This document shows positions 3,716-17,312 of a DNA stretch of 64,000 bases, one piece after another. The notes beneath the pieces are model-generated. The model had not been told where the DNA came from. It worked only from the letters and a program-made list of their open reading frames with translations, and searched no databases. The stretch's first letter is position 1; every line of letters begins with the position of its first letter. The translations under genes were made by a program, and so were the position numbers. Origin of the DNA: Candidatus Binatia bacterium (GTDB taxonomy: Bacteria; Desulfobacterota; Binatia; Bin18); contig OY761159.2 in assembly GCA_963664395.2 (NCBI GenBank), positions 2,272,001 through 2,336,000 of the forward strand, in the 5' to 3' direction.

Positions 3716-6373
3716 TCAGAATGAGTACGACGCCCTGAAGTAGTAGAACCCGCCGTTGTATCCATACGGCGAGGTGACCGGGTACTTCTGGCCGGCATCA
3801 TACTCATTACGATGCACCCGTCCGACCTTGGTCGGATATGTGTTTAACAGGTTGTCCACTCCGGCGGCCACGATCAGCCCGAAATCGAACATGTATGACG
3901 CTTCCAGGTCGAGCAACGCACGGGCACGGGCATAGATGGGCGGGTTGATCTTATAATCTTGATACGGCTCGGTGAAACCGTCGTAGTAATGCAGCCGGGA
4001 AAGGAACCGCCATGATCCCCAGGTGTGGTCCGCCATCAGCGAGAAGCGGAACTCCGGCTCGACATCTTCGACCTGAACTTTGCGCACCGAACCGATGACC
4101 TGCGAGTTAATTGAATCGAGATTGAGGTTGGTGTCGTTCCAGTTGCCGGCAAACGTCAACATAGTCCTGCCGATGCTGCCGCCGAACAAATCCAGGGGAT
4201 AGGTCGCCACGAGATCGATGCCTTGCGTGTACGTTTCGAAAGCGTTGGTGAAAAACCTCACGCTTCTCACGCGACTTGCATCGACGCCTATAGTGGCCAG
4301 GGCGGCGAGATCTTCAGGGGTGATACCCTGGGCGCTGGTCAACCCAATCCGATTTCTCACTTCTATATTGTAATAGTCCAGGGTGACGGTCAGGGCATTG
4401 AGGGTGAGCACCGTCCCGACCGAAAAAGACATGGAGGTCTCCGGTGTCAGCGGCTTGGCCCCTTTCCGGAGCGCAATCGGGTGGCCGCCTGGAAGCGTCG
4501 GCGTTTCGACGAGTTGGTTTGTTTCGGGATCAAAGTTGTAGGTCGTGTCCTGGTAGTTCGCCTGTCCCACGGTCGGCGCGCGAAAGCCGGTCCCGATCGA
4601 CCCGCGCAGCGCCAGATAGTCCTCAAGCAGGCTCCAGCGGGCGGCGAGCTTGCCGTCCAGGGATTCGCCGATGCCTTCATGGTGCTCGAAGCGGCCCGCG
4701 GCGGTGACCAGTACGTTCTGGATGACGTTGGCGTCGAGGTCGATATACGCGCCGAAGCTACCCCGTTCGGCCTCCACCGCATTCTCCGGGCGGATAGCTG
4801 GATACGCTTGGCCGCCTACGCTGAACCCCTGTGCTGCGAGGCCACGCTCTTTCCGTTGCCCATCACATTCTCCGTTGTCATCAGAGCACCAGCCGTTCTT
4901 ATCACCGGATTGGATCTCATACTCTTCCTCGCGGTACTCCAGTCCGAAGGCGACGTTCAGCGGGGAGTGGAAGACGCCAATGTCGAACAGCCTGGAGAAA
5001 TCCAGATTGAAGATCTTGTCCCGCTCCTCGTAGGCGCGTGCGAAGTATTCCGTCGGCATGGCGTCTTTGAGGCGGAGAAGTTGCGGGTTGACGGTGTTCC
5101 ATATGTAGTACGTGGTTCTGTGCTGGCCGAACGCGGCACTCATGTCGTAGTTCCAGCCGTCGAGTAGTGCAGAGGCGCTCTGCAACGTCCCGCGCAGGCC
5201 GAAGGTGATGCCCCAGTCTCGGACGCCGCCGCGCATCCGCGGCGTGAACCCGCCAGAAAGATTTTGGGCCAACGCGTAACAGTCCGGGTTGCCCCCCAGC
5301 GGGGCCAGTGCGGCTACGCCGTTTTGCGTATAATCGCGTGCCGAGATTGTCGGGCAGTTGCCGGTGCCGTCGGGCGTCAGGTCGGCGACCTTTAGACGTT
5401 CGCCGTCCAGATAGACCCCTGTCGTACCGGTAGGCGCGGACGGATGAGGGCCCCGGAAATACCACGAATCCATAATCTCGCGTTCCGCCCAGCTGCCGAA
5501 GGCGTAGGCATGGTGAGAGTCGCCGAGGTCGAAGCCGAAGTTGCCGAAGAATTTATAGTCGTACGGCACGTCCGGCGCGCCCCACACCATCGCGCGATGC
5601 TTTACGGGAAGCCCGGCGTTTCTCAACGGCTTTTCTATATCGAGTTCATAGCTGCGGTCGGTCGAGTCGGAGTTGGTGAACTCGAAGCTGAGGTTGGCGA
5701 AGCCGGCGTCGGTCAGCGGCAGGCCGATGTTGGCCGCCGTGTTCACCGAGTCGCCGTCCCCTTGGTAGTATTGCCCCCAGCTCGCTTCGAGCGTGCCGCC
5801 CTCGGGCGCGTCGCGCAGCACAAAATTCAGCACCCCGGCCACGGCGTCGGAGCCGTACTGCGCGCCAGCGCCGTCGCGCAGCACTTCGACGCGTTTGAGC
5901 GCGATGGACGGGATCGAGCGGATGTCGACGCCGTGCGCCCCTTGCGCCTGCCCGAAGGTGAAGATGCTGACTGCGGACGAGCGGTGCCGGCGTTTGCCGT
6001 TGACCAGCACCAGGGTCGAGTCCGGCGGCAGCCCGCGCATCTTGGCCGGGCGGACCAGCGAGTTCGCGTCACCGATAGCGTGCTGAGTGACGTTATAGGA
6101 CGGAACAGTCGCGGCCAGCAGGTTGTTCAGGTCGCGGACGCCGTAATTCCTGAGACTGTCGCCGTCGATGATGTCTACCGGAACGGGAGAGTCTGCGGCC
6201 GAACGACCCACTGCCCGGGAGCCGACCACTCGCATTTCCTCCAACTCTAGGGGCTGCTGTGTCTGGTCGACCTCTGGCGCGTCAGCCTGTTCCGCGTCTT
6301 GTGCCGTGGCCAGCGGTGCGCCCATCAAGACCAAGAGGGGCACCAAAAGGCTGCATTGCCCTACTTTCTTCAT
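3716..6373 (-). CDS. TonB-dependent outer-membrane receptor (paralog 2)
   Basis: Start moved to ATG 6373 (MKKVGQCSLLVPLL..., AAGGAGG upstream, signal peptide); same plug motifs as paralog 1; ends YYFRASYSF. Confidence 0.95.
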   Translation of the reverse strand: MKKVGQCSLLVPLLVLMGAPLATAQDAEQADAPEVDQTQQPLELEEMRVVGSRAVGRSAADSPVPVDIIDGDSLRNYGVRDLNNLLAATVPSYNVTQHAIGDANSLVRPAKMRGLPPDSTLVLVNGKRRHRSSAVSIFTFGQAQGAHGVDIRSIPSIALKRVEVLRDGAGAQYGSDAVAGVLNFVLRDAPEGGTLEASWGQYYQGDGDSVNTAANIGLPLTDAGFANLSFEFTNSDSTDRSYELDIEKPLRNAGLPVKHRAMVWGAPDVPYDYKFFGNFGFDLGDSHHAYAFGSWAEREIMDSWYFRGPHPSAPTGTTGVYLDGERLKVADLTPDGTGNCPTISARDYTQNGVAALAPLGGNPDCYALAQNLSGGFTPRMRGGVRDWGITFGLRGTLQSASALLDGWNYDMSAAFGQHRTTYYIWNTVNPQLLRLKDAMPTEYFARAYEERDKIFNLDFSRLFDIGVFHSPLNVAFGLEYREEEYEIQSGDKNGWCSDDNGECDGQRKERGLAAQGFSVGGQAYPAIRPENAVEAERGSFGAYIDLDANVIQNVLVTAAGRFEHHEGIGESLDGKLAARWSLLEDYLALRGSIGTGFRAPTVGQANYQDTTYNFDPETNQLVETPTLPGGHPIALRKGAKPLTPETSMSFSVGTVLTLNALTVTLDYYNIEVRNRIGLTSAQGITPEDLAALATIGVDASRVRSVRFFTNAFETYTQGIDLVATYPLDLFGGSIGRTMLTFAGNWNDTNLNLDSINSQVIGSVRKVQVEDVEPEFRFSLMADHTWGSWRFLSRLHYYDGFTEPYQDYKINPPIYARARALLDLEASYMFDFGLIVAAGVDNLLNTYPTKVGRVHRNEYDAGQKYPVTSPYGYNGGFYYFRASYSF

Positions 6374-8998: not shown

Positions 8999-9364
8999 CT
9001 AAAGCTGGGCGTCCCATTGGGGCGCTTTCCAGTTCTTGGGACCAGGCCAGCGATAGTGCTCCAGATTCACCTTTCCATTTCGGTCGAACCCGACCCCTTC
9101 TTCCTCAAGGAGCCAACGTTGTTCCTCGGCGCGAAGGACGTCGCCACGCAGACTGATTCCGCCCGAGGCATTAATCACCCGTTGCCACGGGACTTTTTTA
9201 ATCAAAGGGCGCGGGAGGTATCGGAGCGCGGTTCCGACTGCACGAGCGGCCCGGGGCGCACCAAGAAGGGCTGCTACCTGTCCATACGTCACAACTTTTC
9301 CCCGTGGAACTTTTGTGACCAGACGATAGACGTGGGGAAAAAAACGCGCGGGACGATTTGCCAT
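8999..9364 (-). CDS. Alkyltransferase-like (ATL, YbaZ-type) MGMT-family protein
   Basis: VPRGKVVTYGQVA...RAARAVG...VPWQRVINASG: Trp replaces the catalytic Cys of PCHRV. Confidence 0.88.
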   Translation of the reverse strand: MANRPARFFPHVYRLVTKVPRGKVVTYGQVAALLGAPRAARAVGTALRYLPRPLIKKVPWQRVINASGGISLRGDVLRAEEQRWLLEEEGVGFDRNGKVNLEHYRWPGPKNWKAPQWDAQL

Positions 9365-9393: not shown

Positions 9394-9813
9394 TTACGGA
9401 GAAAGCACCTCAAGTTGCTTGAGCAGCCCAAACACGTCCCACGAGAGCCAGACTTCTTCAATCTTTTCGTCTGCTATGCGATACACCGCAACACCCGCGA
9501 CCACGACCTCCTTGCCCGTTGACGCAACGCCCATGAAATTGCCGTCGTGCGTGCCATGGAAGGTCCAGCGCGCGACGACTTTTTCTCCTTGCGAAATAAA
9601 ATCTTCTATCGTGAAATGGACGTTCGGAAATCCCCTCCGCACAGAAGAGACGATCTGTTTGACATCGTCAGGCCCGCCGCCAAGGTCATAGCCGGCGGGA
9701 TAGTGGCTGACATAGGTCGGAGCAATGAGCTCCTCAATGGTCTCCATGTTGCCCTGATTGAGACATTCTTCAAAATAACGACGGACGATGCCTTTGTTTT
9801 TTACAGTAGCCAT
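9394..9813 (-). CDS. SnoaL-like ester cyclase (NTF2 fold)
   Basis: NKGIVRRYFEE...FPNVHFTIED...GEKVVARWTFHGTHDGNFMGVASTGKEV. Confidence 0.88.
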   Translation of the reverse strand: MATVKNKGIVRRYFEECLNQGNMETIEELIAPTYVSHYPAGYDLGGGPDDVKQIVSSVRRGFPNVHFTIEDFISQGEKVVARWTFHGTHDGNFMGVASTGKEVVVAGVAVYRIADEKIEEVWLSWDVFGLLKQLEVLSP

Positions 9814-9835
9814 GAGAATGCTTCCGATTGAGTGC

Positions 9836-9895
9836 GAAATTTTACCCGAAATTTTACCCGAAATCTTGTCTGAAATCTTGTCTGAAATTTTGCCT
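9836..9895. repeat. Intergenic tandem array, 5 x 12 bp
   Basis: gaaattttaccc x2, gaaatcttgtct x2, gaaattttgcct. Confidence 0.9.
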
Positions 9896-9908
9896 TTGTG
9901 TCCGGCTC

Positions 9909-10745
9909 TTAGACATCCTGCTGTTTGCGTCGCTCCGTCCGCTGTGCGCCCGGCACGAGCTTGGACACTATTGTTGCGCCTTGCCAGTCGCCCTGAAAGT
10001 CTTCGGCAATGACGGTCACCCGGACCATTTCACTTAAGCCTTGGGGATTCGGGAGGAGATTCGCATCCAACTTCCCGTCCTCAGGCAGCATGGTCTCGAC
10101 ATCCGGCGGGGGAAGCGCACCGGGGTCTTCGGGATAGTTGCCAATAGACACGCGGTAATACGTCTTGTGCTGCTGTTGCACTACGACGGACACCGGGTAG
10201 GCCAGACCGGTCGGAAGTCGGTCCGGAACCTCAAGCGCAATATTCGGTGCATACTCACCAAACCGTCCTTCTCGGTACGTGGCAAGGCGTTTGTCGGTGT
10301 AGATCTGCCACTGCCCTGCGTGCTTCCGCAACAGATGAGAGAGGATATCGGTAATGACCACCTCTCCCTCTCCAATATTGCGGAAACGGTCGGTATAGCG
10401 CAGGCGCATATAGGTCGTAATTTCTGCTCGCGTGTCGCCCGCGTCTGTCACATCGACCTTATCAACGCTCAGCGACACATTGCTCTTCCGCAGCCGCGTC
10501 AGCACCTCCCCCACGCCTTGCTTTGACCGTCCGGTGCCACTGATGAAATCATCCGCATAGACGGCCAGCACCTGCTCCGGGTCAAAAGCTTCCAGCCCTT
10601 GAGAGAGCTGCTCAAGGGTCTGCCGGAGATCCTTTGGAACTGATTGGGCAGCCGACTGGAAGAATGCTGAGTCAGATACGCCGTTCGGGCGTTCACATGC
10701 TGTCCCCACGCACAGAGCAAGGAGCACCAGGGAGAGACGGTTCAT
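9909..10745 (-). CDS. Putative lipoprotein with an NTF2-like N-terminal domain
   Basis: Signal peptide ending VGTA-C17; VLAVYADDF...AGQWQI pattern. Confidence 0.65.
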   Translation of the reverse strand: MNRLSLVLLALCVGTACERPNGVSDSAFFQSAAQSVPKDLRQTLEQLSQGLEAFDPEQVLAVYADDFISGTGRSKQGVGEVLTRLRKSNVSLSVDKVDVTDAGDTRAEITTYMRLRYTDRFRNIGEGEVVITDILSHLLRKHAGQWQIYTDKRLATYREGRFGEYAPNIALEVPDRLPTGLAYPVSVVVQQQHKTYYRVSIGNYPEDPGALPPPDVETMLPEDGKLDANLLPNPQGLSEMVRVTVIAEDFQGDWQGATIVSKLVPGAQRTERRKQQDV

Positions 10746-10817: not shown

Positions 10818-11834
10818 TCAAAACAAGTCGGGCTCTGCCTGTAACGGCTGGAGATCTGGCCGGCAGACGCCACACGGCGCGTAGCCAATTTCTTCTGCTC
10901 GTGTACGCGAGGCGATGAATACACGACTCCCCGCTCGAATGCCCTTTGAAGTTTCACAGCCCGGTCGGCAAAATATATGATCCGGCTGCCGACCGACATA
11001 GAGCCGATTCCGGGCAATGGCGAAGCCTGATTTTGATTGAACAGTCGGTATGCCTTCAACCGCAAGAATATCCCGCTTGAGCGCGATTTTATTGCCGGCA
11101 TAACCCGTAAGACTGCCATTACTGCCAATCACGCGGTGACAGGGAATCTGAATCGGCACCGGATTGTAACGCAGGGCCTGCGCAACCGCGCGGACGGCTT
11201 TGGGCTGACTGATTCTTTCGGCAAGACCCAAATACGTCGTGAGGGTGCCATAGGGAATCTCACTCGCCGCCTGTAAGACTTGGCGCTGAAAATCACTGCG
11301 CATGAGGACATCATCGATTACCCAATCAAGCGCCTGTCGCGAGCCGTTCAAGTACGCTTCGAGCTTTTGGGTCAGAGAAGCAGTATGACCCATATTTCCT
11401 TCGGGCTGCTCAATGGAAAATTGAGCAAATTTTTCTCCGAGTCTCCGTGCTCCATCTCCGGGGTCATCGGGAGAAACGAATTCAACCAGAGCCACCCCCT
11501 TACCCGTTGTGCCGATCCGCACCGGACCAAGAGGAGAGTGCCAGATGCTCAGGACGAGGCGCGGACGAGCGCGCTCAGTCAACTGGGCCAACTCGGCCAA
11601 CTCGGTATCGAGTGCGTGTCGAGCGGAGGCGAGTCCAGTCTCAGAGGCGGGCAAAGAGCCAAGCTGAAAGCGGACCTGTCTGTACTGTTCCAGGCGCTGA
11701 GCGCAGTCAGGACAGTCGGTCAGGTGACTGCGGACTTTCTGCTGTATCAGCTGTGAATTTTCTCCGAGCGCTTCGGCGATAATGTCGTCTTCAGCAAATC
11801 CACACGAGAGAGGGTTACGTTTTTGGGTTGGCAT
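10818..11834 (-). CDS. Fusion: zinc anti-sigma (zf-HC2/ZAS) + methylated-DNA-[protein]-cysteine S-methyltransferase + Ada-type Zn-binding domain
   Basis: C11...H37LTDC41PDC44; SPLG, IPYG..TY, RAVAQAL..NP...IPCHRVIGSNGSLTGYAG; C-terminal IFCRPGC...AEEIGYAPCGVCRP. Confidence 0.88.
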   Translation of the reverse strand: MPTQKRNPLSCGFAEDDIIAEALGENSQLIQQKVRSHLTDCPDCAQRLEQYRQVRFQLGSLPASETGLASARHALDTELAELAQLTERARPRLVLSIWHSPLGPVRIGTTGKGVALVEFVSPDDPGDGARRLGEKFAQFSIEQPEGNMGHTASLTQKLEAYLNGSRQALDWVIDDVLMRSDFQRQVLQAASEIPYGTLTTYLGLAERISQPKAVRAVAQALRYNPVPIQIPCHRVIGSNGSLTGYAGNKIALKRDILAVEGIPTVQSKSGFAIARNRLYVGRQPDHIFCRPGCETSKGIRAGSRVFIASRTRAEEIGYAPCGVCRPDLQPLQAEPDLF

Positions 11835-12387
11835 GGCATCTCCTTTCTTCTTCTGTCGTGACCCGTTGCCAGTACGCCCGCAGCTTCTTCAGGGCTTGAT
11901 ACACATGCGCCCGGGCGCTGTCTTCGGAGCAGTCCAGGTTTTCGGCAATCTCCCGATAGGCGAGTCCTTCAAGCTGCCGCTGTATCACTGCCGTGCGCTG
12001 CCGGAAGGGTAAAGCCCGCAGCGCGTTCAGGAGCACCTGGGCTGTCTCCTGCGAGTGAAACGTCTGTTCCGGCGTTGTCGGATGAACTTTTTGAGAAGGG
12101 CTGGACTCGTCCGCGACAAATACTTTTCTATAACGTTGCCGGCCGCGGATATAATTTTTTACGAGATTTGTTGCAATTCGGAAAAGCCAGGCTCGGTGGT
12201 TCGCATCAGCTGGAAGGTCGGCATAGGCACGGTAGGCTCGCAGAAAGGTGTCCTGGAATAACTCCTGCGCGTCGTCGCCATTGCCCGTACAGCGGACGAG
12301 ATAGCGATAGACGGAGCGCTGATGGAGATCGACGATCTCTCCAAATGCGCTCGCCGTGTTACTGAGTTTTTCTGTAGCAGGTGCCAT
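11815..12387 (-). CDS. ECF-type RNA polymerase sigma-70 factor
   Basis: Region 2 DDAQELFQDTFLRAY...AWLFRIATN; region 4 LRALPFRQR...GLAYREIAENLDCSEDSARAHVYQALKKLR; overlaps the next gene by 20 nt. Confidence 0.93.
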   Translation of the reverse strand: MAPATEKLSNTASAFGEIVDLHQRSVYRYLVRCTGNGDDAQELFQDTFLRAYRAYADLPADANHRAWLFRIATNLVKNYIRGRQRYRKVFVADESSPSQKVHPTTPEQTFHSQETAQVLLNALRALPFRQRTAVIQRQLEGLAYREIAENLDCSEDSARAHVYQALKKLRAYWQRVTTEEERRCHANPKT

Positions 12388-12626
12388 TCCAATTACGTAC
12401 TTTCGCCTGAAGCAGTCATACCCAGAACCCTGCTGGTAGGGGAGCGAGAATCCCCAGAAAGCAAGTCAGTAAAAACCACGAAATGAGCAATGAGCGATAC
12501 GCATACATAAAACACACCCTCCGTCTCGTTTATTTCTCTTACGTTCTCTATATAAGACACTGGAGGGTGCGCTGTGTGAAAAAAATTATTGCCCGACAGC
12601 AGTCCGGCCCGTATAGTCCATATGTT

Positions 12627-13355
12627 ATGCAGAGCATCGCCACAACGATCGTTGCCCTCCTCGTTCTTGGCGCTCTTGCGAGCACCCTGACCGCGCCGTC
12701 TCCCGCCGGCCGGACGAATTTTTTTCCGCTTGCCCTGCGTAACACCTGGACGCATGAAGTAAAATTCTCCGGGGGAGATTATCACTATTATATGACGGAG
12801 ACGGTGATCCGGGATGATTTTCCGCTGCTTGAAGGCGCGTCATATATTGTTGCCGAGGAGTATGAGCCTTTAACCGACAGAGCGCCTGAGGCGAAAAGCA
12901 CGGTCGCCTACCTGCGCAAAGACGGCTTTCTCCTCCGCTACCCCTGGCTTGACTCCGAGCATGACAAAGTCTGGGATACAAATCTTGGTGAAGGCATAGA
13001 GCGCATCCTGCCCAGCCCCTATACCGGAGAGCGGAGTTGGGAGGCCGGGCTCCGGACCAAGGCCTGGCCGCTTGAGGGCGGTCAGCAGGTGACTGCCTCG
13101 GCCCACGCGCGGATCGATCCTGTAGCGGTTCAGGTTCCAGCCGGAACGTTCCACAACTGTCTGCGAGTGGAAACCAGGACAACGAGCAGAGTAGCCGACC
13201 CAAGACTCGAGACCACAGAATTCCGCCTCCACTACACCGAGTGGTATGCCCGGGGGGTGGGCTTGGTCAAAGCCATTAGCAGCGAAGGCGAAGGAACGCC
13301 GGTCAAGAGCGTCACCGAGCTGGTATCGTATCGGGTCTACGCGCCGTCGGACTAA
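12627..13355 (+). CDS. Exported hypothetical protein, DUF3108-like C-terminal pattern
   Basis: Signal peptide from ATG 12627; FFPLALRNTWT, VQVPAGTFHNCLRV, TEWYARGVGLVK. Confidence 0.7.
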   Translation: MQSIATTIVALLVLGALASTLTAPSPAGRTNFFPLALRNTWTHEVKFSGGDYHYYMTETVIRDDFPLLEGASYIVAEEYEPLTDRAPEAKSTVAYLRKDGFLLRYPWLDSEHDKVWDTNLGEGIERILPSPYTGERSWEAGLRTKAWPLEGGQQVTASAHARIDPVAVQVPAGTFHNCLRVETRTTSRVADPRLETTEFRLHYTEWYARGVGLVKAISSEGEGTPVKSVTELVSYRVYAPSD

Positions 13356-13455
13356 CGTATGACCTGCGCATATCACGGCGCAATTCCTATCCATCGCCAC
13401 CTTGCGCTTGACTTCCCACTCCGGTTTGCTAGGCAGCAGGGAGAGGGAGGACAGG

Positions 13456-14331
13456 ATGTATCCCAAAGCTATCGAACAGTATTTTGCGCCGACTGATGTT
13501 GCAGAGGTGCTGACGCTCCTCCAACAATATGGGGAGCAGGCAAAACTCCTGGCCGGTGGCCAGAGTCTGATGCCGTTGATGAAACTGCGTCTGGCCGAGC
13601 CACAGACCATTATTGATCTGAACCAAGTGGCGGCGCTTGACGATATCCGTGAGGAGAACGGTCGCTTGCACATCGGCGCGCTCGCCCGTCATGCTGACGT
13701 GGCTACCCATCCGCTCATTCTGCAATCCTATCCGCTCTTGGCGTACGCCGCTCAGAGTATCGGCGATCCGCAAATCCGAAACCGGGGGACGATCGCCGGA
13801 AGTCTTGTCCATGCCGATCCCTCAGCCGATTATCCCCCGGCTGTGATAGCCCTGGATGGCCAGTTGGTAGTAGCTAAGGCTGACGGGAGCACCCGAACGG
13901 TTGCCGCGGAGGATTTTCTGGCCGGCCCGCTGATGAGCGATATTGGCGCAGATGAATTGGTCACGCGGATTGAAATTCCAGCGCCGGCCGCTCGCTCAGG
14001 TGGTGTATACGCAAAGCACAGCCAAGTCGCGGGCGACTTTGCCATTATCAGTGTGGCGGCCCACATCACGCTCGACCCGAGCGGGATATGCCAGCGGGCA
14101 ACCATCATTGTCGGCGGCGTGATGCCCAAGCCGTGCCGAGCCGGGCAGGCTGCTGGTCTACTGACAGGAAAGGCCATTGACGCTGCGCTCCTGACCCAGG
14201 TCGGAGAAGCCGCGGCCGAGGAAGTGGAAACCGAAGATGACGTGAGAGCATCGGCAGCCTACCGCAGCCAGCTTATTCGCGTCTCAGTGCCAGACATAGT
14301 TCGCCGGGCCAGCGCCCGAGCAGAAGCGTAA
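13456..14331 (+). CDS. Xanthine dehydrogenase family FAD-binding subunit (CoxM/CutM-like)
   Basis: AKLLAGGQSLMPLMKLRLA, IGDPQIRNRGTIAGSLVHADPSAD; GGAGG RBS. Confidence 0.92.
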   Translation: MYPKAIEQYFAPTDVAEVLTLLQQYGEQAKLLAGGQSLMPLMKLRLAEPQTIIDLNQVAALDDIREENGRLHIGALARHADVATHPLILQSYPLLAYAAQSIGDPQIRNRGTIAGSLVHADPSADYPPAVIALDGQLVVAKADGSTRTVAAEDFLAGPLMSDIGADELVTRIEIPAPAARSGGVYAKHSQVAGDFAIISVAAHITLDPSGICQRATIIVGGVMPKPCRAGQAAGLLTGKAIDAALLTQVGEAAAEEVETEDDVRASAAYRSQLIRVSVPDIVRRASARAEA

Positions 14332-14366
14332 ACCCACCCGCCATATCAGAGTGAGGAGAGGGCCGC

Positions 14367-14873
14367 ATGAAACAAAGCATAGGCATAACGATTAACGGCG
14401 AAGTCTACGAGGAGGCGGTTGACCTGCGCCTCTTGCTGGTGGACTTCATTCGTGAGGTGGCGGGACTGACGGGCACGCATGTCGGTTGCTCGGTTGAAGG
14501 GCGCTGCGGGGCGTGTACGGTTATTCTGAATGGTAAGGCCGTCAAGTCGTGCCTGCTGTTAGCCGTTCAGGCCGATGGGGCCAGGGTGCTGACCGTTGAG
14601 GGCCTGGCGAGAGATGACGCGCTCCATCCCATTCAAGACGGCTTCTGGGAAAAGCACGGCTTGCAGTGCGGGTTTTGCACGCCCGGTTTGCTGATGGCCT
14701 TGTACGAATTTCTTCAGCACCCCAAGCACTCGGATGAAGAAATCCGCACCGCCATGTCGGGGGTTATCTGCCGCTGTACGGGCTATGTTCATATCGTTGA
14801 GGCGGTCAAGCACGCCATCACAACGGTCGAGGCGCTGTCGCCACAAGAGCGCAAAGAATGGTTTCCGGAATGA
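14367..14873 (+). CDS. Xanthine dehydrogenase family 2x[2Fe-2S] subunit (CoxS/CutS-like)
   Basis: GTHVGCSVEGRCGACTV...KSC and QCGFCTPG...CRCTGY. Confidence 0.93.
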   Translation: MKQSIGITINGEVYEEAVDLRLLLVDFIREVAGLTGTHVGCSVEGRCGACTVILNGKAVKSCLLLAVQADGARVLTVEGLARDDALHPIQDGFWEKHGLQCGFCTPGLLMALYEFLQHPKHSDEEIRTAMSGVICRCTGYVHIVEAVKHAITTVEALSPQERKEWFPE

Positions 14874-14945
14874 GTAAACGCGCCCTCCGACAGACATGCA
14901 GATGTTGGCACGTTTACTCATCTATAGCGAACAAAGGAGCGCGTC

Positions 14946-17312
14946 ATGGCTACCGCGAATGTTTGGGTCGGCCGATCCATTAAACGCAAAGAAGATCGCC
15001 GTTTATTAGTTGGGGACGGGCAGTATCTGCCGGACCTCGTCCTGCCACGTATGGTGATAATGGGCCTGGTGCGCAGCATCTACGCCCACGCAAAAATTAC
15101 GTCCATAGACACCGCTCAGGCGACTGCCCTGCCCGGCGTGCGGACCGTTCTTACCGGCGCAGATGTCAAACACCTTGGGCCGGTGCTGTCAGATATGAGT
15201 ACGCCGAATCTGCCCGGCGAGACCAAACGGCCGATCTTCTGGCCGTTATCGATTGACGAGGTGAAATACGTCGGCGACCCGCTGGCCGTTGTGGTCGCCC
15301 GCGATAAATACACCCTCGAAGACGCGCTTGAGCTGGTAGACGTTGAGTACGATCCGCTCGATATCGTGCTCGATCCCGAGTACGCTCTCCAACCCGACGC
15401 GCCGCGCCTCTATCCCGACTGGGGCGATAATATACTCTACCATCAGCACATTCCCGCCGGTGATCCCGACGCGGCCTTTGCCCAGGCGGACCTGGTCGTC
15501 AAGGAACGCTTTCGTTGCCACCGCACAGGGGGACAGCCCATGGAAACCCGTGGCTGTCTGGCAACGTATAACCCAGGCGAGGGTATGACGTTGTGGCTGA
15601 CCACCCAGCGCCCGCATATTAAACGCCACCTGCTGGCCGAATACCTCAACATTCCACACAGCCAGATGCGGGTGATTATGCCCAAAGACATGGGCGGCGC
15701 GTTTGGGACCAAGGCGCCACTTTATCGGGAAGAACTCCTGGCCTGTCACTTGGCCATGAAACTGCGCCGTCCGGTGAAATGGGTCGAGAACCGTCAAGAA
15801 AGTTTGATGAATGTGGGCCAGGGCCGGGATCAGATTCATGAGATCGAACTGGCCGTGAAGAAGGACGGCACCATTCTGGGCTTACGAGATAAGATTCTGG
15901 CCGATTGCGGCGACGCCCGAACTGCTATTTACGTCGGTTTTGCCATGCCCTTTTTGGGTGCGATGTACCTCATCAACGGTTACGACATTCCCAACGTGGA
16001 TATCGATCTCACCTGTGTGGTGACCAATAAAGCCTGCCTCACGCCGAGTCGGGCGTTCGGTTCGTTTGCCGGACGCTTCGCGCTCGACCGGGCGGTTGAA
16101 CTGGCGGCCCGCGCTCTGGAGATGGACCCGGTTGAGATTCGTCTCAAAAATGCCATCAAGACCTTCCCGCACGTTTCAGCGGTTGGCGTCAACGTAGACT
16201 CGGGGGACTTTCCCGGCTCGTTTGCCAAGGCGTGCGCCGCGCTGGATTACGACAATTTTCGGAAAGAACAGGCCGAGGCGTGGCAAAACGGACGCTATCT
16301 TGGCGTCGGCTTCAGCATGGGGGTGGAAATTTCCGGTGTGCCCTCAGAGGTGCTGGTACCCATGGAACGCCAGCCCGGCTTTGGCGTGGCCGTGGTCCAG
16401 TTCGACGCGCACGGCAAAGTTCAGGTGGCCGAGGGCGACTCGCCGCACGGCCAGGGGCATGAGACGACGATCGCTCAGGTCGTCGCCGGCGAACTCGGCC
16501 TGTCACCCGAGGATATTTACGTCACCTATGGTGACACCCACTCCGGCCCCTTTGCCGCAGGCACCATTGGTTCACGCGGCGCTTCCTATACGCTCAGCGC
16601 CGCGGTGCTGGCCGCGCGCGCCCTGCGGCCCAAGATGGCCAATATTGCCGCCCACCTGCTACATGTCGAGGCCGGCGAGGACGACTTCATCTTCCGTGAC
16701 GGATACGTCATTTTGGCCAAAGACGAGAGCCGGCGCGTGCCGACTGCCAAGATTGCCGAGGTGGCGCTGCTCTCTCCGACCGAACTGCCGCCCGGTATGG
16801 AGGCCGGCCTTGAGCACACCTCCCATTTTGAGGCCGAGACCGCGGGCATGCATAGCTGTAACGTCCATGCAGCCCAGGTCGAGGTGTTTCCCGACACGGG
16901 TGAGTATAAAATCGTACGCTATGTTGCGGTGGATGACGCCGGGCAGCCGATTAATCCCATGGTGGTTCGGGGCCAAATCCACGGTGGGGTGGCTATGGGG
17001 ATAGGCAATGCGTGTATGGAAGAGTTCATCTACGATGAAAACGGTCAGCAGCTCACCACTACGCTGATGGACTACCACATCCCCTCCTCCCTCGATCTCC
17101 CGCATATCGAAACCATCGAACACAACGTCCCCTCGCCGCACACCCCGCTAGGCTCAAAGGGGAAAGGCGAGGGCACACCCGGCATGGTACCGGCCGCGGT
17201 GGCGAATGCGCTTGAGGACGCCTTGCAACCTTTTGGCGTCAAAATCACGGAACTGCCGCTCACGCCGGAGCGGATTTGGAAGTTGATTCAGGCGGCGCAG
17301 TCAAAAAAATAA
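14946..17312 (+). CDS. Xanthine dehydrogenase family molybdopterin-binding large subunit (not a canonical CO dehydrogenase)
   Basis: RKEDRRLLVG, METRGCLA, MGGAFGTK, HGQGHET, INPMVVRGQIHGG, SKGKGEG; active-site loop reads TPSRAFGSF. Confidence 0.92.
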   Translation: MATANVWVGRSIKRKEDRRLLVGDGQYLPDLVLPRMVIMGLVRSIYAHAKITSIDTAQATALPGVRTVLTGADVKHLGPVLSDMSTPNLPGETKRPIFWPLSIDEVKYVGDPLAVVVARDKYTLEDALELVDVEYDPLDIVLDPEYALQPDAPRLYPDWGDNILYHQHIPAGDPDAAFAQADLVVKERFRCHRTGGQPMETRGCLATYNPGEGMTLWLTTQRPHIKRHLLAEYLNIPHSQMRVIMPKDMGGAFGTKAPLYREELLACHLAMKLRRPVKWVENRQESLMNVGQGRDQIHEIELAVKKDGTILGLRDKILADCGDARTAIYVGFAMPFLGAMYLINGYDIPNVDIDLTCVVTNKACLTPSRAFGSFAGRFALDRAVELAARALEMDPVEIRLKNAIKTFPHVSAVGVNVDSGDFPGSFAKACAALDYDNFRKEQAEAWQNGRYLGVGFSMGVEISGVPSEVLVPMERQPGFGVAVVQFDAHGKVQVAEGDSPHGQGHETTIAQVVAGELGLSPEDIYVTYGDTHSGPFAAGTIGSRGASYTLSAAVLAARALRPKMANIAAHLLHVEAGEDDFIFRDGYVILAKDESRRVPTAKIAEVALLSPTELPPGMEAGLEHTSHFEAETAGMHSCNVHAAQVEVFPDTGEYKIVRYVAVDDAGQPINPMVVRGQIHGGVAMGIGNACMEEFIYDENGQQLTTTLMDYHIPSSLDLPHIETIEHNVPSPHTPLGSKGKGEGTPGMVPAAVANALEDALQPFGVKITELPLTPERIWKLIQAAQSKK

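Follow-up and report, generated by a model that had tools for sequence, protein, structure and literature searches.

The 338-aa protein encoded directly downstream of an ECF sigma factor gene in the window (the whole stretch of 64,000 nucleotides analysed) combines a zinc-binding anti-sigma domain with the two methyl-acceptor modules familiar from Ada, and is on balance probably an anti-sigma factor that is consumed by DNA damage and then brings about its own replacement, its release of the sigma factor being putatively prompted by methylation. The relevant gene pair and the domains recognised in the fusion protein, all on the same strand, are as follows.

11815..12387, minus strand: ECF sigma factor gene (190 aa; sigma2 and sigma4, without region 3)
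10818..11834, minus strand: fusion gene (ZAS-type anti-sigma, Ogt and Ada-type Cys4 zinc domains; 338 aa)
11565..11834, minus strand: ZAS-type class I anti-sigma domain, fusion residues 1-90 (C11, H37, C41, C44; four helices)
11310..11558, minus strand: Ogt N-terminal (ribonuclease-like) domain, residues 93-175 (Methyltransf_1N and fold)
11049..11294, minus strand: Ogt catalytic/DNA-binding domain, residues 181-262 (DNA_binding_1, PCHR; Cys232 codon at 11139-11141)
10854..11015, minus strand: Ada-type Cys4 zinc domain, residues 274-327 (C289, C293, C321, C324)

The sigma factor and its linkage to the fusion gene

The positions of the two ORFs confirmed the 20-nt overlap (11815-11834) that a prior sequence-only reading had described between the sigma gene and the gene for the 338-aa protein. 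An AGGAG motif is located 5 nt ahead of the ATG of the fusion gene, within the sigma gene, and in other loci the corresponding overlap amounts to either 4 nt (ATGA) or a few nt. The host of the pair is an uncultured soil-type bacterium with a genome of 5.04 Mb.

The upstream product consists of sigma2 and sigma4 only, within the size range of ~170-200 aa, and is an ECF sigma factor (sigma-70 group 4). Searches with Pfam returned Sigma70_r2 (2.6e-16) and Sigma70_r4_2 (5e-14), and with NCBIfam TIGR02937 (98.5 bits against a cut-off of 42.9), although no NCBIfam equivalog cut-off was reached. The nearest solved structures were those of AlgU (6in7), E. coli sigmaE (1or7) and SigW (5wuq), and one cysteine located in region 4, Cys153, proved to be invariant and was considered as a possible additional redox or alkyl site.

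Linkage of the pair was examined in 80 loci, two of which (L032 and L037) were left out because fewer than 70 nt of sequence precede the match. In each of the 78 testable loci, drawn from Binatia, Methylomirabilota and others, an ECF sigma gene lies directly upstream of the fusion gene, so that a search for homologues unlinked to ECF genes, which could have undermined the proposed partnership, returned none. The identities of the sigma and fusion proteins co-vary (Spearman 0.83, n=76), a value to be read with kin that are not independent. The module is frequent in some phyla: among published sampled genomes of the phylum to which locus L080 belongs, 69 of 117 contain a strong match, and the module was found in 16 of 121 genomes of the window's own class and in 13 of 14 of its family. 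Across the 80 loci, the genes flanking the pair include no conserved kinase, anti-anti-sigma or protease gene.

That ECF genes occur beside ogt genes in other bacteria, as the same reading had stated, has already been catalogued: in the part of PMC8999054 drawn on here, ECF122 is described as a group of ECF sigma factors with a conserved neighbouring 6-O-methylguanine DNA methyltransferase, its mechanism being unknown and no member having been studied. That trait, a 6-O-methylguanine DNA methyltransferase near the sigma gene, is present in 78/78 of the testable loci, and the pairing of an ECF sigma factor with a neighbouring MGMT gene constitutes the likeness between the two. However, the same portion of that source, which summarises Casas-Pastor et al. 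2021 and gives Cellulomonas sp. Root930 as an example, places ECF122 among the groups without an anti-sigma factor, whereas the methyltransferase described here itself bears an anti-sigma domain plus an Ada zinc domain. In addition, the hosts of ECF122 given there are Actinobacteria while those considered here are Binatia and Methylomirabilota, the two being likened by gene pairing. The main text of PMC7826278 makes no mention of ECF122. The same main text ties another group, ECF203, to TetR repressors and describes it as being without a conserved target promoter, in which it does not resemble the present sigma factor with the sharply conserved promoter described below.

Anatomy of the fusion protein

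The alignment used to assess conservation comprised the window protein plus the sequences from 78 loci (79 in total). The nine metal-binding and catalytic residues (C11/H37/C41/C44, C232 and C289/C293/C321/C324) were invariant in all 79, down to 36% identity. The window protein contains exactly eight cysteines, every one of which could be assigned to the ZAS, PCHR or Ada-type motif.

Motif, profile and fold evidence together assign the N-terminal domain to the ZAS-type class I anti-sigma domains, and also bear out the zinc anti-sigma motif proposed earlier. Its motif, C11-x25-H37-x3-C41-x2-C44, comprises the H-x3-C-x2-C signature plus an upstream Cys/His ligand that together define such domains, and the ligands are retained in 79/79 sequences. 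With zf-HC2 (PF13490) the window protein scored 13.5 bits at full length and 15.5 bits for the domain alone, below the cut-off of 22.2, a value exceeded by its relatives P0121 (25.1 bits) and P0135 (23.9 bits); at E<=1, 23 of 25 N-termini from the family were matched, the best at E 4.5e-6. A profile of the N-terminal domain gave as its top PDB matches ChrR (0.048), RslA (0.2) and DdvA (0.41), all with weak E-values. AF2 models placed helices at residues 15-23, 28-40, 42-60 and 65-89, consistent with the helical anti-sigma fold of a three-helix bundle joined by a fourth helix, and when the model was submitted to Foldseek the ranks down to 16 were occupied entirely by anti-sigma chains (RslA, ChrR, RsiW, MucA and DdvA), with probabilities of up to 0.93 and E-values of 0.5-7. 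Against 1.84 billion representatives the N-terminal profile recorded 2223 matches at E<=1e-3 and 128 at <=1e-10, many of them fragments on short contigs whose lengths are little guide to architecture. The absence of a transmembrane helix, also noted previously, was confirmed by a maximum 19-residue Kyte-Doolittle mean of 0.96.

A model of the sigma factor in complex with this domain, suggested at the outset as a means of judging the partnership, supported binding, with a score of 0.77 against 0.01 for the best control; for comparison, 58 of 80 solved complexes attained that mark, as did 2 of 110 mismatched pairs. The partner pLDDT was at least 81, at least 85% of the contacts agreed between runs, and these contacts fell on sigma residues 12-52 and 112-174, which predicts that the domain engages sigma2 as well as sigma4. 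Because complexes of like kind have been solved (sigmaE-RseA, SigW-RsiW and sigmaE-ChrR), this result is a measure of likeness to solved pairs, not of binding by this copy, and may reflect memory of them.

The Ogt part of the fusion is complete, with two domains and the PCHR acceptor, and its alkyl transfer activity is predicted from sequence and model. DNA_binding_1 matched residues 181-262 at E 1.7e-29 and TIGR00589 scored 94.7 bits, with PCHRV at 231-235; P231-C232-H233-R234, together with Y201, R215, N224 and E260, were invariant in 79/79 sequences. Methyltransf_1N matched weakly in the window protein (0.059) and clearly in its relatives, and the full-length model superposed on the whole of M. 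tuberculosis OGT, Ada-C and human AGT with target-normalised TM-scores of 0.79-0.81. The initial description of an intact O6-alkylguanine transferase accordingly stands.

At the C-terminus, Ada_Zn_binding (PF02805) was matched at E 3e-7 (30.8 bits against a cut-off of 23), the match spanning positions 13-65 of the 65-position profile and leaving positions 1-12 unmatched. The relevant motifs in the translation are CRPGC at 289-293 and CGVC at 321-324. A phmmer comparison with N-Ada (1adn; E 1.2e-4) aligned fusion residues 285-328 to Ada 34-76 and the four cysteines to Ada C38/C42/C69/C72, and Foldseek paired the domain with 1u8b_A at a probability of 1.00, thereby upholding the suggestion that this module is an N-Ada homologue. 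Phosphotriester repair is nevertheless not assured, since the first 12 profile positions are unmatched and the residue following the acceptor cysteine varies (R in 32 sequences, L in 37, V in 5 and I in 5).

A 250-aa protein (P0131) was considered as a naturally occurring ZAS-Ogt form lacking the Ada domain but was rejected, being marked as partial by NCBI and having a cluster mate of 321 aa. Atlas clusters of 237-274 aa without PF02805 constitute candidate variants of this type, zf-HC2 being present on 12% of one such cluster.

Promoter, predicted regulon and neighbouring genes

Upstream of the sigma gene, an ECF-type promoter and a short leader ORF were recognised, and downstream of the fusion gene three further genes are encoded on the same strand.

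12575..12581, minus strand: predicted -35 element TTTCACA of an ECF-type autoregulated promoter
12554..12560, minus strand: predicted -10 element GTGTCTT of the same promoter
12416..12508, minus strand: hydrophobic small ORF of 30 codons, in the leader between promoter and sigma gene, preceded by GGAGGG
9909..10745, minus strand: lipoprotein-like gene with a weak DUF4440 match, 72 nt after the fusion gene
9394..9813, minus strand: SnoaL-like protein gene (SnoaL E 1e-36)
8999..9364, minus strand: ATL-like gene (DNA_binding_1 E 8.3e-25; PWQRV replaces PCHRV)

The pattern TTTCA[CT]-N15-G[GTC]GT[CT] was located upstream of the sigma gene in 74 of 76 loci, 73 of them credible (the match in L004 is spurious, and L018 and L065 are the misses), and the spacer was always 15 nt although 13-16 were permitted. 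In the 5.04-Mb genome the strict form TTTCACA-N13-15-GTGTCT occurs once, at the predicted promoter of this operon. A position weight matrix (PWM) likewise ranked the operon site as the best in the genome (42.2 bits), with 11 sites exceeding 14 bits; the second-best of these, C1:1305183 (22.2 bits, before a 271-aa ORF), was rejected as a target of a wider regulon, lying at about the level expected by chance in 10^7 positions. No gene of the alkA, alkB or aidB type bearing the motif was found in the 5.04-Mb genome with either the strict pattern or the PWM, which was built from autoregulatory sites only and which more degenerate targets could escape. That the PWM is able to find second targets follows from its detection of a second site in 38 Methylomirabilota-type loci, in which a second sigma-type promoter precedes a conserved small membrane-anchored protein. 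Since no comparable second site is present in the genome, sigma is predicted to control the operon alone, not an Ada-like set of targets; the circuit for that reason has the appearance of one by which a suicide enzyme replenishes itself, more than of a broad adaptive response. The width of the regulon is where the sequence-only reading, which envisaged an adaptive response, has been refined, its three-domain anatomy, ZAS identity, predicted sigma binding and ECF linkage being kept.

The leader ORF has no stop in its translation and belongs to no Pfam family; at least 10 close Binatia loci retain both its frame and its peptide, and it is absent where the sigma gene starts 2-22 nt past the promoter. 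Downstream, the lipoprotein-like gene occupies the same position in 28 loci (tblastn) and the SnoaL-like gene is conserved in 26. In 30 loci, every one belonging to the Binatia-type set L001-L036, the ATL-like gene is likewise found downstream in the same orientation, and in L033 and L034 it follows the fusion gene directly. A terminator scan revealed no terminator-like site between the fusion gene and these three genes, which may be read through from the operon promoter. Among assembled contigs from RNA libraries, those of two runs of one study (95-99% alike) map to the sigma and fusion genes and those of all four runs to the downstream genes; such contigs are no measure of transcription, strand, ends or level, DNA may be present, and gaps in X17 and X18 carry no meaning.

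The fusion provides the sole Ada_Zn_binding match genome-wide, and no canonical Ada was found in the genome, which holds a separate standalone Ogt of 166 aa plus two ATL-like genes, of which one follows shortly after the pair. Given this standalone Ogt and the lack of any other Ada_Zn_binding domain, the fusion is to be regarded as an extra, regulated copy.

Proposed mechanism, alternatives and relation to known systems

A scheme consistent with these data would begin with the fusion serving as the cognate, soluble anti-sigma factor of the co-translated sigma factor, its zinc-binding class I domain being predicted to clamp sigma2 and sigma4 and so bar sigma from RNA polymerase. Cys232 of the Ogt would act as the irreversible methyl acceptor for O6-alkylguanine, and Cys289 of the Ada-type domain as an irreversible acceptor probably directed at methylphosphotriesters, each repair event thus permanently converting one molecule of inhibitor. 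With the anti-sigma domain fused straight onto the N-terminal domain of the Ogt, the alkylated inhibitor would be expected either to release sigma or to be proteolysed; we infer that methyl transfer is what brings about release. Free sigma would then transcribe its own TTTCAC-N15-GTGTCT promoter, the only strong site in the genome, and the resultant sigma factor and fresh, unalkylated inhibitor and repair protein would close the loop. The outcome would be a repair enzyme of the suicide type whose supply is titrated by damage and replenishes itself: an Ada-like adaptive response with partner release as its output in place of an AraC DNA-binding switch. The sections of PMC4605297 drawn on here describe alkylated AGTs as unstable and degraded via a perturbed connection between their domains, and those of PMC10779285 describe methylation of Ada C38 as an electrostatic switch.

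An alternative, which we consider unlikely, is that the Zn-thiolates of the ZAS domain are themselves oxidised or alkylated by electrophiles in the manner of RsrA or ChrR, thereby releasing sigma and leaving the Ogt and Ada-type zinc domains as cargo. The complete and invariant ligand set C11/H37/C41/C44 is in keeping with such a switch, as is its spacing, which we take to be equal to that of RsrA, although in many ZAS domains the zinc has a structural role and no part in sensing. Cytoplasmic class I anti-sigma domains are also, in the part of PMC7406223 drawn on here, described as rich in zinc motifs and tied to redox sensing. However, ligand-based sensing would leave unexplained the invariance of C232 and the four Ada-type cysteines and the persistence of the fusion across phyla (79/79), a predicted regulon confined to the repair operon, and the ATL-like gene that travels with the pair in 30 Binatia-type loci.

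Rather less probable still is release of the anti-sigma fusion by a signal other than its own alkylation, whether regulated proteolysis, a partner switch or stoichiometric buffering, the fusion then serving to secure 1:1 synthesis. Translational coupling would indeed set such a stoichiometry, and the membrane-anchored small protein of the Methylomirabilota-type loci and the leader ORF here are possible extra regulators; yet these accessory small proteins differ by clade where the three-domain fusion is constant, and the survey of 80 loci gave no kinase, anti-anti-sigma or protease gene as a conserved neighbour. Least probable, notwithstanding the weak HMM scores of the N-terminal domain, is that this domain is no longer inhibitory and either anchors the repair protein on sigma or RNA polymerase for transcription-coupled delivery or is a non-functional remnant, given that four helices and four zinc ligands are kept in 79/79 sequences, that in the model it occupies the sigma2 and sigma4 surfaces as do inhibitory class I domains, and that negative control would be needed with so strict an autoregulated promoter.

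Read as a damage-consumed anti-sigma factor, the fusion can be compared with three established types of protein. With E. coli Ada, and with the split AdaA/AdaB of B. subtilis, it shares both methyl-acceptor modules (the Cys4 zinc domain and the PCHR-containing Ogt), and with Ada also a predicted autoregulation by which the sensor induces its own synthesis. The order of the modules is, however, reversed, Ogt preceding the Ada-type zinc domain, and no AraC-type HTH was found in the fusion (no HTH_AraC or HTH_18 match); the proposal that an anti-sigma domain has taken the place of the AraC part is thus substantiated at the level of three-domain anatomy. Against the Ada equivalog NF011964 the fusion scored 87.1 bits, by its Ogt part only, compared with a cut-off of 345. 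The output of Ada is DNA binding, whereas that predicted for the fusion is release of an ECF sigma factor.

With the zinc class I anti-sigma factors of the pairs ChrR-sigmaE (R. sphaeroides), RslA-SigL (M. tuberculosis), RsiW-SigW (B. subtilis) and RsrA-sigmaR (S. coelicolor), the shared features are the H-x3-C-x2-C motif plus upstream Cys, four helices, a position directly downstream of and coupled to the ECF gene, and, as judged from the complex model, a clamp on sigma2 and sigma4. Sequence similarity to the solved members is marginal (E 0.05-0.4), and the sensor parts differ: a cupin in ChrR, a membrane or extracytoplasmic part in RslA and RsiW, none in RsrA, and two suicide DNA-repair domains in the fusion. 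Standalone Ogt/MGMT proteins have in common with it the complete two-domain fold and the catalytic residues, and alkylation-induced destabilisation and degradation is a property of that family according to the same sections of PMC4605297, but the fusion adds domains at both ends plus coupling to a sigma factor. No description of the triple fusion or of its anti-sigma reading was found in the literature searched, and the word "sigma" is absent from a 2023 review of the alkyltransferase family.

The ECF sigma/anti-sigma pair is the commonest stress-signalling device in bacteria, and Ada, to our knowledge, has been the single paradigm for bacterial sensing of DNA alkylation for around forty years; here, both of the Ada methyl-acceptor chemistries appear to have been rewired into such a pair. 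It is possible, and is put forward tentatively, that the fusion represents the first anti-sigma factor inactivated by its own catalytic turnover, repairs at Cys232 (base) and Cys289 (backbone) each retiring one inhibitor molecule and thereby constituting a two-input, self-contained adaptive response, of an evolutionary origin separate from Ada/AraC, in several poorly studied soil phyla. If so, sigma activity would count repair events and the unspent pool of the suicide enzyme would be held constant. The proposed scheme would also, if true, supply a mechanism for an ECF group that has been catalogued but left unexplained, extend the known modes of anti-sigma inactivation by the using up of a suicide enzyme, and provide a compact, orthogonal module of two genes plus a promoter that reports alkylation damage.

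Domain anatomy of the sigma-fusion gene pair

The sequence-only reading had described an ECF sigma gene overlapping a gene for a fusion of a zinc anti-sigma (ZAS) motif, an Ogt domain and a C-terminal Ada-type zinc module, and had proposed an alkylation-sensing switch. The description proved accurate in every particular, namely coordinates, 20-nt overlap, motifs, three domains and the lack of a transmembrane helix.

Genes of the locus (window coordinates, except for L082, a separate stretch of DNA)
11815-12387, minus: ECF sigma gene, 190 aa; Pfam Sigma70_r2 and Sigma70_r4_2
10818-11834, minus: fusion gene, 338 aa; Pfam DNA_binding_1 and Ada_Zn_binding
9394-10745, minus: lipoprotein-like gene (weak DUF4440) and SnoaL-like gene, between the fusion and ATL-like genes
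8999-9364, minus: ATL-like gene, PWQRV in place of PCHRV
L082 1359-1775, minus: second ATL-like gene, PWQRV in place of PCHRV
12627-13355, plus: gene for a DUF3108-like secreted protein (weak match), divergent and opposite the sigma promoter in 33 Binatia-type loci

The start codon of the fusion gene, within the 20 nt common to both genes, is preceded at 5 nt by AGGAG. Pfam placed DNA_binding_1 at residues 181-262 of the fusion (E 1.7e-29) and Ada_Zn_binding at residues 274-327 (30.8 bits, cut-off 23), with a weak Methyltransf_1N match and zf-HC2 below threshold (13.5 against 22.2 bits); NCBIfam returned the ogt superfamily (94.7 bits), weak anti-sigma and RsrA matches, and a score for the Ada equivalog short of its cut-off (87 against 345). 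A scan of the whole protein detected no segment hydrophobic enough for a membrane helix. The protein has exactly eight cysteines: C11, C41 and C44, which accompany H37; C232 in the PCHR motif; and C289, C293, C321 and C324.

An AlphaFold model of the whole fusion (pLDDT 76) superposed on alkyltransferases over their full length (M. tuberculosis OGT, E. coli Ada-C and human AGT; lowest E 2.8e-10, target-normalised TM-scores 0.79-0.81), and its C-terminal part resembled methylated N-Ada on DNA (1u8b_A; probability 1.00, 62 columns). Sequence alignment of residues 285-328 with Ada 34-76 (E 1.2e-4) placed C289, C293, C321 and C324 on Ada C38, C42, C69 and C72, described in PMC10779285 as zinc ligands, C38 being the methylphosphotriester acceptor. 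Pfam, fold and cysteine alignment thus bear out a complete Ogt with PCHRV followed by an Ada-type module. The genome encodes four DNA_binding_1 domains: besides the one in the fusion, a standalone Ogt of 166 aa with PCHR carries one, and two ATL-like proteins with PWQRV account for the others; its only Ada_Zn_binding domain lies inside the fusion, and canonical Ada is therefore absent.

The N-terminal domain and its predicted partner

The fusion N-terminus carries an invariant C-x25-H-x3-C-x2-C motif. Among family N-termini, 23 of 25 matched zf-HC2 (best 4.5e-6), some relatives exceeding the Pfam cut-off, and the best matches of the N-terminal family profile in the PDB were ChrR (0.048), RslA (0.2) and DdvA (0.41). 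Modelled alone, the domain formed four helices (pLDDT 79), and its fold matches listed at ranks 1-16 were all anti-sigma factor chains (RslA, ChrR, RsiW, MucA, DdvA), with probability up to 0.93 and E 0.5-7. Individually weak, these lines of evidence nevertheless agree on an anti-sigma identity.

Complex modelling deployed the sigma (alignment of 23) and fusion residues 1-95 (alignment of 25), folded three times alongside three controls. Binding of the sigma by the fusion N-terminus, as the sequence-only reading had anticipated, was predicted with a score of 0.77, the best control reaching 0.01; of the solved complexes, 58 of 80 attained the mark applied, as did 2 of 110 mismatched pairs. Partner pLDDT did not fall below 81, and at least 85% of contacts agreed between runs. 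The modelled contacts, with helices 1 and 3 on sigma4 (163-170) and helix 4 on sigma2 (19-52), follow the class I pattern. Since similar complexes have been solved (sigmaE-RseA, SigW-RsiW, sigmaE-ChrR), the score is a measure of likeness to such pairs rather than proof of binding by the window copy. The fusion is very probably the anti-sigma factor of its sigma.

Conservation, neighbourhood and promoter

A search of 5.8 billion proteins yielded more than 120 full-length relatives of the fusion (51-97% identity), annotated solely as methylated-DNA-protein-cysteine methyltransferase. A one-genome-per-species scan found 143 relatives, from which 80 loci were retained, labelled as Binatia, Methylomirabilota/Rokubacteria, deltaproteobacterial MAGs, one Polyangiaceae and one Baltobacteraceae, some labels being evidently wrong. 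The expected linkage to ECF genes held: in 78 of the 80 loci the fusion gene directly follows a homologue of the window sigma on the same strand, and in the other two under 70 nt of sequence precedes the match. Gene junctions are -20, -4 (ATGA) or a few nt. Across 79 proteins (the window copy and 78 from the loci), C11, H37, C41, C44, C289, P291, C293, C321 and C324 are invariant, as are P231-C232-H233-R234, Y201, R215, N224 and E260; the position that follows C289 is variable, occupied by R (32), L (37), V (5) or I (5). Loci whose sigma is closer in identity to the window copy tend to have a closer fusion as well (Spearman 0.83, n=76, related genomes not being independent). The module is real and well conserved.

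With a strong match to the N-terminal domain profile defined as E <= 2.5e-16, the phylum holding locus L080 contained one in 72 of 121 sampled genomes (75 places, hand-counted; 69 of 117 without four unpublished genomes), the window's own phylum in 3 of 151, and its class in 16 of 121, including 13 of 14 from its own family. The module is thus unevenly spread, with enrichment in particular lineages. Sigma Cys153 (11929-11931, minus; in region 4, sequence LDCSED) is common to all 23 aligned family sigma factors. The sigma gene of locus L027 (3421-4032, plus) contains an in-frame stop codon, perhaps reflecting a pseudogene, sequencing error or recoding, and was excluded from the sigma alignment.

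The downstream same-strand genes are retained exclusively in Binatia-type loci (lipoprotein-like in 28, SnoaL in 26, ATL-like in 30), and in L033 and L034 the ATL-like gene is the next one after the fusion; a terminator scan found no terminator-like site between the fusion gene and these genes. Contigs assembled from two runs of RNA libraries lack 24 nt at window position 9848, between the SnoaL and lipoprotein genes, where the sequence reads as a short tandem repeat, a strain-level length variant. At 13402-17312 (plus), three consecutive genes resemble by eye those of a CO-dehydrogenase/xanthine-dehydrogenase-type enzyme (FAD-binding, 2Fe-2S and molybdopterin subunits).

A promoter pattern, TTTCA[CT]-N15-G[GTC]GT[CT], precedes the sigma gene in 74 of 76 loci with sufficient upstream DNA, the match in L004 being spurious; L065 is one base off, and 300 nt of upstream DNA in L018 contain no match. 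The estimated chance expectation is ~0.004 per 340-nt region, and the spacer is 15 nt throughout, though 13-16 were permitted.

Predicted promoter elements, by motif match
12581-12575 and 12560-12554, minus

The motif lies 2-22 nt from the sigma start in most loci; in the window and close relatives a leader of ~170 nt intervenes. Within it, a 30-codon hydrophobic ORF with a GGAGGG ribosome-binding site (12416-12508, minus) keeps frame and peptide in no fewer than 10 close Binatia loci, and is absent where the sigma gene directly follows the promoter; its product could be a small protein of the membrane or a leader peptide with a regulatory role.

A weight matrix (38 positions, 30 bits, 70 distinct sites) scored the window promoter at 42.2 bits, the next best site in the 5.04-Mb genome reaching 22.2, about chance level, and the strict pattern occurs there once. 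The matrix can find further targets, since it detected a second same-strand site (17-38 bits) after the fusion gene in 38 Methylomirabilota-type loci, and none in Binatia-type loci. Beyond that site comes the gene for a small membrane-anchored protein outside all Pfam families, no more than 600 nt away in 35 of the 38 loci and no more than 400 nt away in 27. The protein has ~126 aa and one N-terminal membrane helix; the L038 example is at 5898-6348 (plus). This protein, of which the window's genome holds no homologue, is likely a regulon member in the Methylomirabilota-type clade. As the sole strong site is its own promoter, the predicted regulon in the window's genome is the operon itself.

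Proposed response and known systems

The data show the anatomy, conservation, linkage and promoter, and sigma binding is predicted; beyond this, alkyl transfer to C232 and/or C289 may inactivate the inhibitor. According to PMC4605297, alkylation destabilises the alkyltransferases of humans, archaea and bacteria via the link between their two domains, and the alkylated proteins are degraded; according to PMC10779285, methylation of Ada C38 alters the charge of the zinc site; because the anti-sigma domain lies a few residues from the Ogt N-domain, either effect could free the sigma. The main rival explanation is that the ZAS thiolates would themselves be the sensor, via oxidation or direct alkylation. 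On balance we lean slightly towards the full switch consumed by damage.

The closest known kinds are the ZAS anti-sigma factors and the Ada response. A 2022 review (PMC8999054, citing Casas-Pastor et al. 2021) notes conserved 6-O-methylguanine DNA methyltransferases beside ECF122 sigma factors, and lists that group among those without an anti-sigma factor and of unknown mechanism. The main text of Casas-Pastor et al. makes no mention of the pairing, the group descriptions being in supplements that may say more; the word "sigma" appears nowhere in a 2023 alkyltransferase review, and the literature searched yielded no account in which the fusion is an anti-sigma factor. With its regulon limited to itself, a circuit whose inhibitor is consumed by alkylation would renew the repair protein as it is spent, in proportion to damage, and a sigma-methyltransferase module so far catalogued only as a gene pairing is directly testable.
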